From contig JAZDJN010000065.1 of the NCBI GenBank assembly GCA_043803945.1, positions 1 through 64,000 on the forward strand: DNA of 64,000 bases, written 5' to 3'. Made by a program: the position numbers and the translations under genes. Shown here one piece after another: positions 9,486-28,669 of the stretch. This DNA is from a bacterium (GTDB lineage Bacteria; Bacteroidota; Ignavibacteria; UBA10030). The first letter of the stretch is position 1. Each line of letters begins with the position of its first letter. The notes beneath the pieces are model-generated. The model did not search any database. It worked only from the letters and a program-made list of their open reading frames with translations, and had not been told where the DNA came from.

Positions 9486-10289
9486 TTAATAGCTCTCCAG
9501 GCGGATTGTTCCCCGATAGCTTTTAAGCAAAACTTCCGGACCTCCTCCGTTAATTTTCTCTGAGTAATGGTAGCCTTTGGAACGTTTGGAAGCTGATCGT
9601 TTTTCCAAAGTAAAGTCCGAACTAAATTCTCCATTTTTTTCGATATCCAAATTAACCTCGAATCCCGAACCTCTTGGAATCTTCACTCCAATCTCTCCCT
9701 TGTACGTATCAAATGAGCAACGATTCCGAACAGCGGCGAGTTTTACGGTTGCCTCACCCTTATAAGTATTCAGGCTCACCGATCCTTCAAGGTTTTCCAG
9801 TCTCACCGTCCCTTTGTAGGTGTTGATATCTACGTCGGATCGTAAACCGACAATTGTATTTTCCGACTTGTAGTCCTTCACCACCAGCTTGGCAGTTCGA
9901 GGCATTGAAATTTTATAATGGACGAATGGCATCGTTCCATCATCGCTTGAGAATAGTCCAAAAAAAGAGCCATGCCTGTTGGTGCGGCGATAATCCGATT
10001 TAATACGCACTGTTGAAGACGATTCATCGATCCGAATCTCTGTGTCTTCAACTCTCTCCCTTGAATACCGATTGTGTCCATCTGCTTCGATTGTCGCGGT
10101 AATGTTAACTTCGTTCTTATCCCACCCGACAACATCGACACTTCCTTTGTATGTATCGATGACAACCTTGCCATCAGGTTTTAACTGAATAGTCTTACTA
10201 ACCTTCCGTGTATCCTGTGCAATAATGATCATTACACTGCCAATAAGCAGAAGGAGCACACACATAAGCCGTACCATAGCACGCATCAA
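9486..10289 (-). CDS. DUF4097-like beta-strand repeat protein
   Basis: Signal peptide; repeated TYKG(T/E) motifs; adjacent to pspC. Confidence 0.7.
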   Translation of the reverse strand: MMRAMVRLMCVLLLLIGSVMIIIAQDTRKVSKTIQLKPDGKVVIDTYKGSVDVVGWDKNEVNITATIEADGHNRYSRERVEDTEIRIDESSSTVRIKSDYRRTNRHGSFFGLFSSDDGTMPFVHYKISMPRTAKLVVKDYKSENTIVGLRSDVDINTYKGTVRLENLEGSVSLNTYKGEATVKLAAVRNRCSFDTYKGEIGVKIPRGSGFEVNLDIEKNGEFSSDFTLEKRSASKRSKGYHYSEKINGGGPEVLLKSYRGTIRLESY

Positions 10290-22265: not shown

Positions 22266-22529
22266 AGAGTGTCAGTACTTCTGGTAGTTGGAATTATTTG
22301 TGACGATGGTGTTAAAGTATAGCTTTTCATCCAAAAAGCAAGCGCCACTCCCTCCTCAAACACATAATTCGCAAAGGCCTTCGTCTCCCTCTGCTTTGCA
22401 AGGGAGTTCTCAAATCGCTATCTTTGTAAGTCTAACTTGCACATCAGATAACAAATCATGCAACTTACACCACAAATTGAAATTTCTGTACTAATCCCTT
22501 ACGTCAAATCGCTTTCTTCTTCCAAGTCG

Positions 22530-23525
22530 ATGCCTTCACTTCGCAGGAAGGTAGATGAATTAAGAGAGTACCTTTCACAGGTATCAAAGAGATCGACAAT
22601 CATGTCAAGCGGGGGCACACTCAGACTCGATTTTCTCCTGGGGGAACTCGACCAAATTGTCTCGTCTCAAACAATCGAACGAGCCAGGTATTATGTGAAG
22701 AGATTGGAAAAATCGCTCACTGCTGCCAAAACTTCCAAACTGAACGACCTGAACCTGAACCGGTGGAAAGAATATACCTCCATCATCACCGATAGTTTAT
22801 GGATTCTTGACAAGCGCGATGCTTCCGGAGAACATGCAGCCTGGTACTGGGGGAATTTTATTCCACAGATCCCACACCAATTGATGCTTCGGTATACCAA
22901 ACAGAATGAATGGGTTCTCGATCCATTTGCCGGAAGCGGTACTACCCTCATCGAGGCACAACGACTGGGAAGAAACTGCCTCGGTGTGGAGTTGCAGCCA
23001 GCTATTGCCAGAAAGGCACACAGATTACTGAAGAAAGAAAAGATCCTCCACCCGGAGATCACAACGGCAATTGAGGTTGGCGATAGCCGGACCGTCAATT
23101 TCCAGAAACTGCTCAAACCATATGGAATCCGATCGGCGCAGTTAGCAATCCTCCATCCTCCTTACCATGATATTATCCGGTTCAGTTCGAAACGTAATGA
23201 TCTCTCAAACCTCAAATCCGTTGAGCGTTTCGCGGGCGCATTTGGAGAAGTGGTTGAAAACGTGAGTGAAGTTCTTGACCCGGGAAGATATCTCGCTCTG
23301 GTCATAGGCGACAAATACGAGAAAGGGATCTGGATTCCGCTTGGATTTCTCCTGATGCAACGGGTCTTAGAGCTTGGATTTTCCCTGAAAAGCATTGTAA
23401 TTAAGAATTTTGAGGAGACTTTAGGCAAACGCAACCAGAAGAAACTCTGGCGATACCGGGCCCTTGCCGGTGGTTTTTATGTCTTCAAACACGAGTATAT
23501 TTTCATCTTCCAGAAGAATAAATGA
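22530..23525 (+). CDS. DNA amino-methyltransferase (N4-C/N6-A)
   Basis: DPFAGSGTT (motif I) followed by HPPY (motif IV); start codon uncertain. Confidence 0.85.
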   Translation: MPSLRRKVDELREYLSQVSKRSTIMSSGGTLRLDFLLGELDQIVSSQTIERARYYVKRLEKSLTAAKTSKLNDLNLNRWKEYTSIITDSLWILDKRDASGEHAAWYWGNFIPQIPHQLMLRYTKQNEWVLDPFAGSGTTLIEAQRLGRNCLGVELQPAIARKAHRLLKKEKILHPEITTAIEVGDSRTVNFQKLLKPYGIRSAQLAILHPPYHDIIRFSSKRNDLSNLKSVERFAGAFGEVVENVSEVLDPGRYLALVIGDKYEKGIWIPLGFLLMQRVLELGFSLKSIVIKNFEETLGKRNQKKLWRYRALAGGFYVFKHEYIFIFQKNK

Positions 23526-23533
23526 ATTCGCTC

Positions 23534-23562
23534 TTGAAAGAATAGATTAGAGATAGTATTAT
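23534..23562 (+). promoter_or_regulatory. Sigma70-like promoter
   Basis: TTGAAA-17 nt-TATTAT upstream of 23622. Confidence 0.45.
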
Positions 23563-23621
23563 TCAATCAATCCTTTATCAGAATCACCATTATAGTCACT
23601 GGTCTCTAGAACGAGGATCGT

Positions 23622-24260
23622 ATGCATTTCACTCTGGATATCCGGGAACAGGAGCTAAAGAAACGGTTCGCTCATCCGTACGAGTGGGGGCAAAAGCAGA
23701 ATGATGCATGGGATGAACAGACTGATTTCATTTATCACATTTTCAGCTTCGAAGCGCTGGTGAAAGAAGTTGAAACCCGATTTCACACAATGCTGAACTA
23801 TAAAGAGTTCTACAACTACACATTGAATCGATGGTATAATTTCTGGTCGGCAAAAGCTATCGAACAAATATTCTGTTCTCATCCAATCGTGAAAGGAGCC
23901 ACGGATAACAGAGACCGTCTTCGCGATTTCAAAGTCAACAACATCAACTTCGATCACAAGACTTCAACCTATCCGCGAGGTTTCAACCATGACCTCACCT
24001 ATGGTCAAAAGCACCCGAAAGAACTAGTCGAATGGTTTTACCGGCACCAGAGTCAGCAGCGGCGAAAGCATCATGAGAATCGGATCTTCATCATTCTCTA
24101 TTCATCCGATGGCGAGCATTGGAAACTGAAGGCGGAACTCGGCTGGATTGAGAAGCTGATCAAAGGGTATCTCGATGGATTCGATGAGACAAAACTCTTC
24201 AGGTTTACGTTTGACCAGAAGCACGAAATTGTCGCCGATGTGATCTGGGCAATAAATTAA
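23622..24260 (+). CDS. Hypothetical protein, putative type II restriction endonuclease
   Basis: Directly downstream of the MTase; D...FDHKTS resembles a PD-(D/E)XK active site. Confidence 0.5.
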   Translation: MHFTLDIREQELKKRFAHPYEWGQKQNDAWDEQTDFIYHIFSFEALVKEVETRFHTMLNYKEFYNYTLNRWYNFWSAKAIEQIFCSHPIVKGATDNRDRLRDFKVNNINFDHKTSTYPRGFNHDLTYGQKHPKELVEWFYRHQSQQRRKHHENRIFIILYSSDGEHWKLKAELGWIEKLIKGYLDGFDETKLFRFTFDQKHEIVADVIWAIN

Positions 24261-24341
24261 GTGTAACCTTCCGAAGGTTACACAGAGACCTCATAGAGCC
24301 TTCGGAAGGTTACGCAGATTTGTTCGAACCTTCCGAAGGTT
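24261..24341. repeat. REP/BIME array, left part
   Basis: GTGTAACCTTCCGAAGGTTACAC palindrome plus two more CCTTC(C/G)GAAGG cores with conserved linkers. Confidence 0.85.
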
Positions 24342-24467
24342 GAACTAAGCCGCTTTGCGGCAGCGCAGACTTGTTCTTTGACAATAAGGATATTGCCCGA
24401 GGAGACTACATGAGGTACATTTGAGCGGGAGTTCACGGATTACTCACACCACTCAAAGGAGATACTC

Positions 24468-25321
24468 ATGGGCGAGATACGAGATCAAATGGTGATGGCG
24501 ATGCGGCTGAGGAATTTTAGTCCAAAGACCATCAAGTGCTACCTTTCGATTGCAAGAGGATTTGTACGGATGTTTGGTAAGTCCCCCGCAGAGATGGGAG
24601 AAGAAGAAGTACAGCGATATCTTCAAAGTCTTATGGAACGAAAGGCCAGTTGGGCAACCATTCGTCAGGCAAGCAGTGGGTTAAAATTTCTCTATCAAGA
24701 CACGTTGAAGCGGGAATGGCAGGTAGAGAACCTTCCGCATCCGAAACGGGAGAAGCGCCTTCCGATAGTATTATCGACGGAAGAGGTCAAGCGGCTTCTT
24801 GATGCAATGAATACCCTGAAGCACCGGATGGTGTTGATGGCATGCTATTCCGCAGGGTTGCGGGTGGGCGAAGCGGTTCGTCTGAAGGTAACAGACATCG
24901 ACAGCCAGCGGATGCAGATCCGTGTTGAACAAGGCAAAGGGAAGAAAGATCGCTACACGCTGCTCTCCATAACATTGCTTGAGCAGCTTCGGATGTACTG
25001 GAAACTCTATCGCCCGCAGCAGTGGCTTTTTGCTGGCAGAATACCTGGAAGAGCGCTGACAGAAAGCAGCGTGCAACGCGCCTTCACACGGGCAAAAAAA
25101 AAGCCGGTATCACCAAGCATGTGACAGTTCATTCCCTACGCCACAGCTTTGCGACCCACCTTCTGGAGTCGGGTACCGATATTTTTGTTATCCAACAGTT
25201 GCTCGGACACTCCAACCTGAAGTCCACAAGCATCTACCTCCATCTGCGGCGAGCAAGCATCGACAAAATTGTAAATCCGCTTGATCGTTTGATGGCTCCT
25301 CTGACGGAGATGCAATCATGA
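24468..25321 (+). CDS. Tyrosine recombinase (SAM-like N-domain + catalytic domain) split by a -1 frameshift at A9 (25094-25102)
   Basis: YSAGLRVGE and GKGKKDRY in frame 1; [13 protein letters not shown] and LLGH...T.IY in the -1 frame. Confidence 0.85.
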
Positions 25322-26520
25322 CGACACGCACGTTGGAGGTGGCAGATGTGATACGAGCATACGGCAGCGAATATAGAAAGACTCACAAACTTCCGGTGCG
25401 ACATTTACGGGCACTCCATAGCATCACCTCATGCCGAACAGCGGCTCTGGGTGGACATGTAGATCGGTGTGATGCCTGTGGCTATCAGCGTATATCCTAT
25501 AACTCATGCCGGAATAGGCATTGTCCAAAGTGTGGTTCATTGGCAAAAGAGAAGTGGTTACGAGCACGAAAAGAGGAGCTTCTTCCTGTTCCCTACTTTC
25601 ACATCGTCTTCACACTTCCGGATGATCTCAATGCACTAACACTTATCAATCAGCGTGTGATGTATGCGATGCTGTTTCAAGCTGCAGCCGAGACACTCTT
25701 GCATCTTGGACGTGATCAAAAGCATCTGGGTGCTGAAGTGGGACTGATTGCAGTCTTGCATACGTGGGGACAGAACTTGATGGATCATCCTCACGTGCAT
25801 TGTATTGTTCCTGGAGGTGGACTTTCACAGGACGGGATGAGATGGATTGCGTCGCGGAAAAACTTTTTCATACCAGTCCACGTGCTCTCCCAGGTTTTTC
25901 GAGGCAAGTTTCTGGAACAGTTGAAGAAGGCATATCTAAGCCAAAGGCTTATGAGCCCCCGGCTCAGTGTGCGACAAATAAGGTGTATTGGTAAGGCATC
26001 GTCACTTGATTGCAGAGAGACATTTCAGACGTTGCTTGACCGGCTTTACAGCAAAGGATGGATTGTGTATGCAAAGCAGCCGTTTGGCGGACCAGAACAG
26101 GTGCTTGCGTATCTTGGCCGATACACCCATCGGGTAGCAATTTCAAATCATCGATTGGTGGAGATGACCGAAGGCAAGGTCAGCTTCCAATGGCGAGATT
26201 ATCGAGATAAAGACAAAGAAAAGATTATGTCGGTGGAAGCGAGTGAGTTTCTTCGCCGGTTCTTGTTACACATCCTCCCTGATGGAATGTGTAAGATTCG
26301 CTATTACGGTTTACTCAGCAATAGAAAACGAACGGATCGTTTGGACAAGTGCAGAACGCTTCTCGATGCACCACTACAAGACGTCGAGCCAGAGACTGTG
26401 ACGTGGCAGGAGTTGTTGTTAGAACTTACAGGCATCGATGTTCTGGTATGTCCAAGTTGTCATAAAGGAAAGATGTTGAATGAACGAATGCTTCAACCTA
26501 ATCAGCATGCGCCACCATAG
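25318..26520 (+). CDS. IS91-family (Y2 HUH) transposase
   Basis: Zn-binding [13 protein letters not shown] motif HPHVH, YLGRY and IRYYGLL motifs. Confidence 0.92.
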
Positions 26521-26759
26521 GAACGAGTATAACAAAGAAAGAGAATACTCAAAACAAGCGGCAAGGAATAACTATGCCCTTGACAAAAAGATGGCACAAC
26601 CTATGATGATTCCATTAGATTGTCTCAGCACAGATGATCTGAAATCTGTGTTCCTTACTCTGAGAAGTGGATGGCAGGGATCGATCTTCCAGATAACGCC
26701 TATGATTGAATACCCATATAGGAAAGGTTTTGCGGCTTCCCTGCCTGCCGGCAGGCAGG

Positions 26760-26849
26760 GTTCAACCGAATTTTATCCGCACTTGAGTCTAAGGACTCTT
26801 CAAAACGAATATTTTTTTTGTCTCAAGCACGGATAAAATCCTAAACGTT
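26760..26849. other. attC-like hairpin at the element right end
   Basis: GTTCAAC (RYYYAAC), then an 18-bp imperfect stem ATTTTATCCGCACTTGAG / CTCAAGCACGGATAAAAT, then GTT. Confidence 0.6.
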
Positions 26850-26941
26850 ATACCGAGACCTCATAGAGCCTTCGGAAGGTTTCGCGGATTTATTCGAACC
26901 TTCCGAAGGTTATACCGAGACCTCAGAGGGCCTTCCGAAGG
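26848..26941. repeat. REP/BIME array, middle part
   Basis: Three CCTTC(C/G)GAAGG cores with linkers ATACCGAGACCTCA.AG.G and TTCGCGGATTT.TTCG. Confidence 0.85.
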
Positions 26942-26955
26942 ATCCAGGGTAAGTT

Positions 26956-27516
26956 ATGAAATACATCGACAATCAGTATTATCACATCTATAACCGCGGT
27001 GCACATAAAGCACTTATCTTCTTCAATTCGGAAAATTACAGATACTGTTTAGATGTACTCAAGAATAATGCTTCACGCCATAACGTTCTCATCGCAGCAT
27101 ATTGTCTGATGCCGAATCATTACCATTTGGTGATGAAGCAATTAGATAGTGGTTCAATCTCGAGATGTATCCAAACAACATTCAACACATATACCCAAGC
27201 GATCAATGTTAGAAGGAATCATTCCGGAACCATGTTTCAAGGAAAAGCTAAGGCAAAACTAGTCAATAGTGATTCCTATGTTTTTCAACTCATCCGTTAT
27301 GTTCACTTGAATCCTGTAGAAGCTCAACTTGTAACTCGACCTGAAGACTGGATTTTTTCTGACTATGCTGATTGGGCAGGAATTCGAGAGAGAAAAACTT
27401 TCAATAGTAGCTTAAGAGATATGTTCTTTAAAAATGGAGAGGAGTATAAAGAGTTCGTCCAACAACATAGGCGGGAAGAGATTAAAAAGAACATCGGAAG
27501 ATATCTAATGGACTGA
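26956..27516 (+). CDS. REP-associated tyrosine transposase (RAYT, IS200-like Y1 HUH)
   Basis: YHIYNRG, YCLMPNHYHL, YVHLNPV and W.FS.Y motifs; REPs on both sides. Confidence 0.9.
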   Translation: MKYIDNQYYHIYNRGAHKALIFFNSENYRYCLDVLKNNASRHNVLIAAYCLMPNHYHLVMKQLDSGSISRCIQTTFNTYTQAINVRRNHSGTMFQGKAKAKLVNSDSYVFQLIRYVHLNPVEAQLVTRPEDWIFSDYADWAGIRERKTFNSSLRDMFFKNGEEYKEFVQQHRREEIKKNIGRYLMD

Positions 27517-27522
27517 GGTTTG

Positions 27523-27640
27523 AACCTTCGGAAGGTTACACAGAGACCTCAGAGGGCCTTCGGAAGGATTCGCGGATTTGTTCGAACCTTCCGAAGGTTA
27601 TATCGAGACCTCTTAGAGCCTTCGGAAGGTTTCGCGGATA
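27523..27640. repeat. REP/BIME array, right part
   Basis: Four further cores in about 62-bp composite units. Confidence 0.85.
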
Positions 27641-27643
27641 CAA

Positions 27644-28669
27644 TTACGAGTGAGAATAATCGGCCGCTCGTTCGCCGGTCGTACAGGTGATGATAACGAG
27701 ATCCAAAACGAGGTGCGGGTCGCGTGAGGTAGTTTTAAGGATCGTGTCGGCATCGAGCAAGGCAGAGAAGCTATGCTCAATCTCTTCGGAAGAATACTTG
27801 GTGCGGAACAGGAGATACTGCTTCAGAATCGAGGGAGGTAGATTGAATTCTTTTTCCAATTCATACTCCGAGAGCCTCCGCATGGCGGGATCGTAAAGTT
27901 TCCAGAGTTGGGTAAAAAATTTCGTGAGCATGATAATAATATATTGGGGCGATTGACCCATTTCCAGCATACGTTCCAGAATTCTCACTGCCTCCCTGGT
28001 GTCTTTTCTCCCTATTGCGTTTTGTAATTCGAAAATTGTAAATCCCTTGGTTGCTCCAACAACGCTCGCCACATCTTCGGGAGTAATTTCTTTCCTCTCG
28101 CCTATAAAGATGAACAGTTTATCAATCTCATTTTGAAGTGCCCTGAGAGAATTTCCCACATACGCATGCAAGAGTTGGCATGCTTCAGGCGTAATCTGCC
28201 GTCCGGCAATTCTGATCCGCTCGCGGATCCAGGGTGGGACCTGATTATCGAAAAAAGGCTTGCATTCGATCAGGACAGCTTTTTTCTTCAACTCATTAAA
28301 GGGTTTCTTCCTGAAATCCTTCTCAGCCGTGACAAGCACGAAACAAGTCGATAGCAGCGGATTATTGATGTAGGCGGAGATGATTTCCCTGTCCGTATCA
28401 CCAATCAATAACTTCTCAAATTCCTTCACTACCACCACCCTGCGTTCACTCATCATCGGGAAAGATGTTGCATGGGCAATGACTTCTTTCGCGTCAACTT
28501 TATTTCCGTAAACAACATCCAGGTTGAATCCCTTCATTTCAGGGGTTACCGCCAGTTCGATGATCGCGTGTATCCCCTCATCGATAAAAAAATCCTCTGT
28601 TCCATAAAAAAGATAGAGTGGAGCGAGAGCGGACGCTGAGAGTGATTGTTTGAACTCTGAGAAGGTCAT
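27644..28669 (-). CDS. holA: DNA polymerase III delta subunit
   Basis: YLFYG.EDF, FPMMSERRVVVV, NEIDKL and IFEL..AI motifs. Confidence 0.88.
   Translation of the reverse strand: MTFSEFKQSLSASALAPLYLFYGTEDFFIDEGIHAIIELAVTPEMKGFNLDVVYGNKVDAKEVIAHATSFPMMSERRVVVVKEFEKLLIGDTDREIISAYINNPLLSTCFVLVTAEKDFRKKPFNELKKKAVLIECKPFFDNQVPPWIRERIRIAGRQITPEACQLLHAYVGNSLRALQNEIDKLFIFIGERKEITPEDVASVVGATKGFTIFELQNAIGRKDTREAVRILERMLEMGQSPQYIIIMLTKFFTQLWKLYDPAMRRLSEYELEKEFNLPPSILKQYLLFRTKYSSEEIEHSFSALLDADTILKTTSRDPHLVLDLVIITCTTGERAADYSHS

Follow-up and report, generated by a model that had tools for sequence, protein, structure and literature searches.

An IS91-family element carrying an IntI/Xer-like recombinase, with ends predicted to fold like an integron cassette site once joined, in a palindrome array of an Ignavibacteria genome

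The stretch of DNA analyzed here, which we refer to as the window, comprises positions 1 to 64,000 of the forward strand of contig JAZDJN010000065.1 (GenBank assembly GCA_043803945.1), from a bacterium of the Bacteroidota (Ignavibacteria, UBA10030). Within it, an array of repetitive extragenic palindromic (REP) sequences is interrupted by a mobile unit of 2,508 bp (24340-26847), which has been put between the G and the TT of one GTT at the foot of a REP stem (written G^TT below, the caret marking the crossover). Two genes lie between the REP repeats, one for a tyrosine recombinase (Int) and, directly downstream and likewise within the element ends, one for an IS91-family Y2 transposase; the stop codon of the former overlaps the start codon of the latter (ATGA). 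The element is a member of the integrase-carrying IS91 subgroup, a widespread kind of mobile element that has been little studied, and its ends, once joined, would fold like an integron cassette site.

The insertion left no target duplication behind. Across the whole genome there are 40 copies of the REP core CTTCCGAAGGTT. None of them is followed by a second GTT; ATA follows in 16 (ATACCGAG in 11), and GAACTAAG follows in one, at the window element. On the left, the flank ...CCGAAG and GTT run into GAAC..., and on the right ...CCTAAAC and GTT run into ATACCGAG. A contig of 232 nt from the RNA run X1, which is 90-95% alike and represents a paralogous REP, joins 24338 to 26847 with 3 letters in common. 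The initial annotation had proposed both that the element entered a REP at a single shared GTT without duplication, which the REP census, the flanks and the X1 contig bear out, and that this REP is itself an AAC...GTT stem, which is how it reads.

The two ends are related to each other. Read on the bottom strand, the left end has the order palindrome-TTA-GTTC-AA, which is the layout of the IS91 terIS. The stretch GTTGAACTAAGCCGC (24339-24353) pairs at 14 of 15 positions with a split internal copy made up of GCGGCTTC (26732-26739) and GTTCAAC (26760-26766), so that the inverted repeat first noticed at these positions is upheld. The 20 nt that part the two halves (26740-26759), CCTGCCTGCCGGCAGGCAGG, are an independent perfect palindrome with 10 exact copies in the genome, and the relatives L014 and L016 have an uninterrupted GCGGCTTCGTTCAAC at the internal repeat (L numbers denote loci and G numbers genomes, G000 being the window's own). 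CCTGCCTGCCGGCAGGCAGG sits precisely within the repeat, no bases having been lost, and appears to be a small mobile palindrome that made a secondary insertion there. Its copies, one in the window and the others on the own-genome contigs C13, C26, C58, C83, C87 (twice), C98, C104 and C111, stand in varied contexts, three of them within a larger repeat family. Downstream of the internal repeat lies the terminal hairpin. Folded as DNA, the 88 nt from 26762 to 26849 reach -14.1 kcal/mol (z -4.3) on the top strand and -16.7 kcal/mol (z -5.0) on the bottom strand, with none of 200 shuffles as stable on either strand, and the bottom-strand hairpin has 18 contiguous pairs, two of which are G-T, in agreement with the stem as first described. 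A role for this hairpin as a transcription terminator or known RNA was considered and set aside, as Rfam gave 0 matches over 23500-27700 (E up to 1) and the T run lies in the loop.

This architecture is a family trait. A transposase scan that took one genome per species confirmed 202 relatives in genome contigs, and 80 loci were kept, which come from Ignavibacteriota, Nitrospirota, Bacillota, deltaproteobacteria, WOR-3, Bathyarchaeota, anammox bacteria and others and encode transposases 50-80% identical at the protein level. The end architecture is kept in 27 of the 27 distinct elements tabulated. The left end consists of a trinucleotide, GRACTAARCCGC, a loop of 3-6 nt and GCGGY. In the right end, the inverted left motif is followed by a triplet (X) and, after 2-3 nt, by a hairpin, a tail of 7 nt with the consensus CTTAWYC, and a trinucleotide. 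Of 81 loci scanned for G[GA]ACTAA[AG]CCGC, 55 have this motif upstream of Int. All 27 elements have the hairpin, as the initial annotation had anticipated for homologues, and its stem differs in sequence between clades while its pairing is always kept. Triplet X complements the left trinucleotide in each group, being AAC against GTT in the window subfamily, TTC against GNA in a second subfamily and AAT against ATT in L064. The idea that the hairpin arms resemble the repeat motif was dropped given that it holds in one clade only. Scans of viral contigs for elements gave 0 hits, along with 28 chance hits without element ends, and the small own-genome matches L003-L007 proved not to be IS91 genes.

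Near-identical copies, many in several genomes, allowed the element ends to be fixed. In G041, where 7 full copies are at least 99.96% alike, the left trinucleotide is GTT in 6 and ATT in 1 and the right trinucleotide is ATT in all 7; in G045 (5 copies) the left is ATT in 4 and GTT in 1, and the right is ATT in 3 and ATA in 2. Copies from Ignavibacteriota have GTT on the left (3/3) and GTT, GTT and GCC on the right, and those from Nitrospiraceae have GTA on the left in 6 and GTA (4), GAA (2) or GCA (1) on the right. Base 1 of the right trinucleotide is thus constant within one element (A in 7/7 in G041 and 5/5 in G045), its counterpart in the left trinucleotide differs between identical copies in these other genomes, and the two trinucleotides are discordant in many near-identical copies, for example in 6/7 in G041. 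Two uninterrupted sites in G052, homologous to one of the G041 targets, read ...ACTT GTT. Taken together, the copy variation, the G052 sites and the REP census mean that base 1 on the left and bases 2-3 on the right come from the target. The mobile unit is then 5'-TT-GAAC...tail-G/A-3', entering at N^NN between bases 1 and 2 of a trinucleotide, and in the window subfamily the crossover falls between G and TT, where the initial annotation had placed it. Its wider expectation that every homologue ends at G^TT stood for this subfamily and failed for the second one, in which the target is G^NA.

Three other ways of assigning these bases were tried and rejected. A 3-bp target duplication does not agree with left and right trinucleotides that differ in many young copies; an element-borne left trinucleotide with a right one from the target needs exact-base mutation in L111/L057 and L110, copies that are ~100% alike; and the absence of any element-borne base at the right end is contradicted by the REP consensus. 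In G045, the pattern expected of an empty L110 site had 0 matches. Three of the full G041 copies (L106, L109 and L117) share ~70 identical left-flank bases, beyond which they are only ~70% alike; this was first read as read-through past terIS, a reading that the alignment did not bear out, and possible causes are that one family of targets was hit several times, that gene conversion took place, or that sequence past the left end was carried along. At ~130 nt upstream of L109 there is an older, solo right end.

The choice of target appears to follow from the element's own sequence. Across 45 independent insertions, target base 1 was G in 39 and A in 6, corresponding to a bottom-strand C or T, both of which can pair with the G of the guide. 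Comparison of the subfamilies indicates that the target trinucleotide is complementary to the guide triplet just inside the right-end hairpin, with G-T wobble tolerated on the bottom strand only. The preference in the window subfamily is G^TT-A-K-R-Y. In the second subfamily (L021-L028, L045, L046, L059-L061 and L069-L088; 19 independent insertions), G^NA is accompanied by ATTAC in the left flank, mostly at -10 to -6, with T at -8 in 19/19. Several of these left flanks are alike over a longer stretch, TTCACCTAC...ATTGAGGATTAC, although they come from different genomes; the stretch translates to ...IEDYW... and might represent a small, conserved gene that serves as target.

The mismatches in the paired ends favor a bottom-strand fold, as had been suggested from the window copy. 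Over 390 positions in 26 elements, repeat mismatches that become G-T numbered 35 for the bottom strand (C-A or A-C) versus 1 for the top strand, a count that overstates independence because the wobble mismatches cluster at three alignment positions in related elements, and the bottom-strand form of the hairpin was the more stable one in 18 of 27 elements, with the two forms equal in 3 and the top-strand form more stable in 6. Two metagenome contigs, L143 (2,673 nt) and L138 (2,614 nt), contain the ends joined head to tail in the order internal repeat-AAC-hairpin-tail-[A/G]TT-GAAC, with exactly one trinucleotide. Both junctions fold as predicted, with bottom-strand z values of -7.1 and -4.4, into a long stem, an asymmetric loop and an inner hairpin. 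These natural junctions indicate that the joined ends of an element would give the single long hairpin envisaged at the outset, in which the left end and trinucleotide pair with the internal repeat, the 7-nt tail makes up the asymmetric loop, and the terminal hairpin forms the inner part. In a third metagenome contig, L137, a complete left end has gone into the GTT that belongs to a solo right end; the metagenome hits numbered 10, of which 7 were chance matches.

Both enzymes appear to be retained for catalysis. The transposase matches Pfam PF14319 (Zn_Tnp_IS91) and PF04986 (Y2_Tnp) and scores 470.7 bits against NCBIfam transpos_IS91 (NF033538; cut-off 125), and it is ~25-27% identical to the IS91 types of E. 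coli plasmids. All 63 unique relatives keep its HUH and YxxxY motifs and five of its six zinc-binding cysteines, and 62 keep the sixth. The element thus has the marks of the IS91 family: a Y2 HUH transposase with an N-terminal zinc-binding domain, no target duplication, and a terIS end. For Int, we collected open reading frames of at least 270 amino acids upstream of the transposase gene in 60 related loci (61 with the window read-through), 47 of them unique, and the catalytic R, HxxR, H and Y are retained in 44-45 of the 47. The conserved catalytic residues imply that both enzymes are under selection for catalysis. Phage_int_SAM_4 and Phage_integrase (Pfam) were found on the two pieces of the window Int. 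An intact relative's Int scored best against NCBIfam XerA (188.8 bits, cut-off 220) and reached 158.7 bits against the integron-integrase model TIGR02249 (cut-off 265), the latter in two stretches; against PDB it matched the XerC-like 4a8e at 7e-29 and IntI4 (2a3v) at 4e-27, again in two stretches. By these matches, Int belongs with IntI and Xer. Because the TIGR02249 and 2a3v matches skip the region of the IntI-specific additional domain, Int lacks that domain, as the initial annotation had suspected. The recombinases of IS91 and IS3 elements have already been placed in an "integron-like" subgroup, the closest homologues of IntI, without the IntI insertion (10.1101/542381).

In the window, Int is read in two frames (24468-25124 and 25022-25321) that meet at a run of nine A (25094-25102), where a -1 shift is needed; one extra A in this run gives a 284-amino-acid Int without a stop. 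L010-L015 and L058 share an A9 run at this position that likewise calls for a -1 shift. In L016 the run is A8 and a +1 shift is required, and in L066 (A8) the Int reading frame ends just past the run; in other lineages Int is one open frame. In L035 and L064, an A9 run lies elsewhere than in the window's clade, ~30 nt before the transposase start at the Int/Tnp boundary. Given that the same A9 break recurs in multicopy Ignavibacteriota relatives as well as in other distinct elements, we regard it as a feature and not as decay, and it looks like a site of programmed transcriptional or ribosomal slippage that would throttle Int.

The element has the layout of IS91 at both ends. PMC13181058 states that IS91-family elements do not duplicate their target, that oriIS carries one or two subterminal palindromes and terIS a single one beside the cut site, that TnpA alone carries out the insertion and uses only single-stranded circles of the bottom strand, and that an upstream gene, orf121, overlaps tnpA and modulates the reaction. 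The canonical IS91 of an E. coli plasmid has a left end that reads CGAG-TAG-GCAGCC-TGGC-GGCTGC and a right end in which a palindrome and TATCGAT are followed by the target CAAG. Like IS91, IS801 and IS1294, the window element has a transposase of this family, no target duplication, and an upstream gene whose stop overlaps the transposase start. Its left end has the palindrome, TA(A) and 4-nt motif of a terIS, its right end the subterminal hairpin and short tail of an oriIS, and its bottom-strand bias agrees with the bottom-strand circle described for IS91 (PMC13181058). Unlike in IS91, the upstream gene is that of a tyrosine recombinase with its catalytic residues intact and takes the place of orf121, the right end contains the terIS motif once more in inverted form, the mobile unit carries 2+1 extra bases, and the target of the window subfamily is G^TTA, not GTTC or CTTG; the bottom-strand flank at the oriIS-like end reads TAAC or TAAT in the window subfamily and NTNC in the other, and is not GTTC/CTTG here. 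We take ISWz1, ISShvi3, ISSod25 and ISAzo26 to be integrase-carrying IS91 entries of ISfinder, likened to the element by their gene pair and not by their ends.

With integron cassettes the element shares a recombinase of the IntI/Xer group, a crossover at G^TT (AA^C in bottom-strand terms), a bottom strand that folds better, and a target consensus like the integron core consensus, GTTRRRY. Its joined ends correspond to attC in part, in that RYYYAAC (GTTCAAC) pairs with GTTRRRY (GTTGAAC) around an imperfect hairpin of variable sequence; no extrahelical bases were identified in them. The element differs in having an Int without the IntI-specific insertion, an outer stem of ~15-20 bp versus 7 in attC and a stem that is much longer overall, enzymes of its own, and a sister subfamily that uses G^NA with a TTC guide. 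No attI/Pc platform or cassette array came up in the window, though neither was searched for as such. In the CTX phage and like elements, folded single strands are integrated through XerCD at dif; the pathway proposed below would likewise combine single-stranded circles from HUH rolling-circle replication with Xer-type exchange of one strand at a folded hairpin, the differences being that the element encodes its recombinase and that its targets are short GTT-type sites and not dif. In IS200/IS605 elements (Y1 HUH enzymes), a guide by the subterminal hairpin pairs with both cut site and target, and the cut follows the recognized tetranucleotide. Here, too, a short internal guide beside a subterminal hairpin explains target choice, the DNA would be single-stranded and there is no duplication, but the transposase class differs and the cut falls inside the trinucleotide.

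We hypothesize, at a probability of roughly 45%, that the element moves by a pathway shared between its two enzymes, in which the transposase would supply the strand and Int would exchange one strand at AA^C. The active form would be a bottom-strand single-stranded circle, as demonstrated for IS91. The Y2 HUH transposase would nick the oriIS-like right end and provide bottom-strand DNA, the IntI/Xer-like Int would bind the folded junction and exchange one strand at AA^C (which is G^TT on the top strand) with a GTT target, and replication would resolve the product, in parallel to integron cassettes and the CTX phage, with the conserved A9 slippage site throttling the output of Int. We favor this pathway because the cut falls inside a base-paired recognition triplet, because Int is catalytically conserved and of a kind known to act on folded strands, because the junction mimics attC in the order of its parts, and because the target consensus G^TT-A-K-R-Y resembles GTTRRRY. 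A report of the IS91-like ISShvi3 adjoining attC in an integron (PMC9229058) also speaks for it. Several observations weigh against it. Given that the ends are homologous to terIS and oriIS and that TnpA alone suffices for IS91, every DNA feature listed here also fits a pathway run by the transposase alone, and Int occupies the position that the regulator orf121 has in IS91. The bottom-strand flank by the right end in the second subfamily, NTNC, is like the IS91 target tetranucleotides. Among partial copies in G041, G044 and G045, the right end is kept in 8 and only the left end in 1, and the window's own genome adds two more solo right ends; this is the polarity expected of rolling-circle transfer starting at oriIS. 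The contigs L143 and L138 may be tandem copies instead of circles, and no circle junction of the window element was seen in the contigs of X1, an RNA run and the sole run with any stretch of it (8% of sampled words). The Nitrospiraceae copy L028, with GAA on the left, breaks the crossover rule. Finally, targets that form hairpins, as the initial annotation supposed, are frequent (REP-like palindromes were hit in the window, in ~4/5 of the G045 copies and by the left-end fragment L121) but not general, given that only 8 of 26 reconstructed empty sites of the window subfamily were strongly structured and many were not. The original idea that HUH-made circles are integrated by the recombinase is therefore supported by the end anatomy, the crossover and the folding without being set apart by them from an IS91-like reaction.

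In that reaction, which we consider quite possible though on the whole improbable, TnpA would cut both ends and both make and insert the bottom-strand circle; the internal triplet would guide the terIS cut site and the choice of target, as in IS200/IS605; and Int would be an accessory that acts as a regulator in the orf121 position, resolves multimers, or rescues double-stranded circles that are dead ends. The sufficiency of TnpA and the insertion of bottom-strand circles only, both stated for IS91 in PMC13181058, speak for it, as do end layouts homologous to terIS and oriIS, the invariant HUH and YxxxY motifs, the NTNC-like flanks of the G^NA subfamily, the right ends retained by truncated copies, and the lack of target duplication in the REP census. 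A regulatory role would not, however, require Int to keep R, HxxR, H and Y. Studied HUH enzymes cut after their recognition motif, whereas the cut here lies inside the recognized, base-paired trinucleotide, one base from its end. Moreover, cuts aligned with those of IS91 predict a junction without the trinucleotide, of which the observed junctions hold exactly one, and the inverted terIS copy inside the right end had no counterpart in the IS91 copy that was compared by eye. A double-stranded, site-specific reaction, in which Int would excise a duplex circle and integrate it via an attP-like core of tail, trinucleotide and left end, with TnpA replicating the circle or being a passenger, strikes us as very improbable. 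The tail and left end are indeed imperfect inverted repeats about the trinucleotide, head-to-tail junctions do exist in DNA contigs, and Int is, from its residues, a presumably competent tyrosine recombinase, but only 3 nt separate the arms and the signature of a 6-8 bp overlap is missing. Copy variation is confined to the trinucleotide and split 1+2, targets and element have little sequence in common apart from GTT and about four bases, hairpins keep their shape and not their sequence, and a strand-asymmetric wobble would be meaningless in duplex DNA.

Whatever the family does, the window copy itself may be a dead relic that no longer moves, which we hold to be a serious possibility just short of even odds. 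It is the sole full copy in a genome scored 100% complete, a 20-bp palindrome splits its internal repeat and may have disabled it, and its Int gene lies in two frames. However, Ignavibacteriota relatives with several copies (three loci, 97.4-99.96% alike) and other distinct elements share the A9 break, the transposase is intact, and a side hairpin need not block pairing of the repeat; two X1 RNA contigs match the element at 100%, one of them spanning the left junction, which is weak evidence of activity. Solo remnants in the same genome indicate that the element was active there earlier. At C108:10135-10221 there is a solo right end with the whole hairpin at 92% identity, at C19:20015-20051 the 3' half of one, each ending in AAACGTT followed by A, and at C26:32152-32168 a solo 17-mer of the repeat, GCGGCTTAGTTCAACC. 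Another solo right end, L130 in G045 (C11, ~9729-9771), is a symmetrical, perfect palindrome in which tail and trinucleotide prolong the hairpin on either side, in the order AAT-GTTTAGG-stem...stem-CCTAAAC-ATT.

Table 1. Features of the element and its immediate surroundings in the window
Feature	Coordinates	Strand	Remarks
Left part of the interrupted REP array	24262-24339	.	Last stem AACCTTCCGAAGG; G 24339 is the target-derived base 1 of the left trinucleotide
Left end: TT, then GAAC-TAA-GCCGC-TTT-GCGGC	24340-24361	+	terIS layout
Int, IntI/Xer-like tyrosine recombinase, two frames	24468-25321	+	Pfam, NCBIfam and PDB matches
IS91-family Y2 HUH transposase, 400 amino acids, intact	25318-26520	+	Pfam and NCBIfam matches
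Internal inverted copy of the left end, GCGGCTTC...GTTCAAC	26732-26766	+	Final AAC complements the left trinucleotide
Subterminal hairpin, oriIS-like, counterpart of the inner attC part	26770-26839	+	Steadier on the bottom strand
7-nt tail CCTAAAC plus G, the final base of the mobile unit	26840-26847	+	Family tail consensus CTTAWYC
TT of the target, then the remaining REP array (ATACCGAG...)	26848-26940	.	Sequence and REP census
REP-associated tyrosine transposase (RAYT) gene, outside the element	26956-27516	+	Pfam Y1_Tnp

The target is an ordinary REP/RAYT locus, in which the REP array (24262-24338 and 26850-26940; stem AACCTTCCGAAGGTT, 40 core copies genome-wide) flanks a RAYT-like gene whose product scores 67.2 bits against NCBIfam REP_Tyr_transpos, under the cut-off of 80. 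Upstream of the element lies a gene for an N6/N4 DNA methylase (22458-23525), followed by an open reading frame of 212 amino acids (23622-24260) that had no Pfam or NCBIfam match and may encode a restriction partner of the methylase. Elsewhere in the same genome, fragments at or near contig ends (C41:1569-2315, C45:13792-14076 and C70:58758-59042) match the integron-integrase model, and one of them covers model positions 164-267, including the IntI-specific region, at 131.9 bits. The host may thus carry a true integron integrase, broken across contigs.

The pairing of the two genes is already catalogued. Junction anatomy, split-trinucleotide crossover, guide triplet and slippage site were not found in print, and a literature search, which did not extend to ISfinder, TnPedia or supplementary tables that may bear on the question, found no published mechanism for integrase-carrying IS91 elements, in line with the initial annotation, which knew of none. 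In a broader and, in our view, rather unlikely interpretation, Int-IS91 elements would be free-living, self-mobilizing counterparts of integron cassettes that enter by single-strand exchange at G^TT of short GTT sites, among them REP stems, resident right ends and attC.

In summary, our study describes an element in which an IS91 transposase is combined with an IntI-like recombinase and a junction that mimics attC, and if the two-enzyme pathway is true, this would be an undescribed hybrid transposition pathway and would assign a function to a catalogued gene pair of unknown role. The rules derived here (unit boundaries, N^NN crossover, guide triplet and bottom-strand bias) define exact substrates for laboratory work. 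Two major routes by which genes are captured, IS91-type elements and integrons, both act on single-stranded DNA. If the broader interpretation is true, the widespread Int-IS91 family could resemble the ancestor that gave rise to attC/IntI recombination, and the element offers a testable lead on where that system came from. In Weeksellaceae, IS91-XerD pairs adjoin tet(X)/catB clusters, for which the accessible portions of the two reports give no mechanism (PMC11194056, PMC11322121). Given that these pairs are relatives of the element, its mechanism bears on how such clusters move; the broader interpretation, if true, would explain how IS91-XerD pairs come to move next to resistance clusters.

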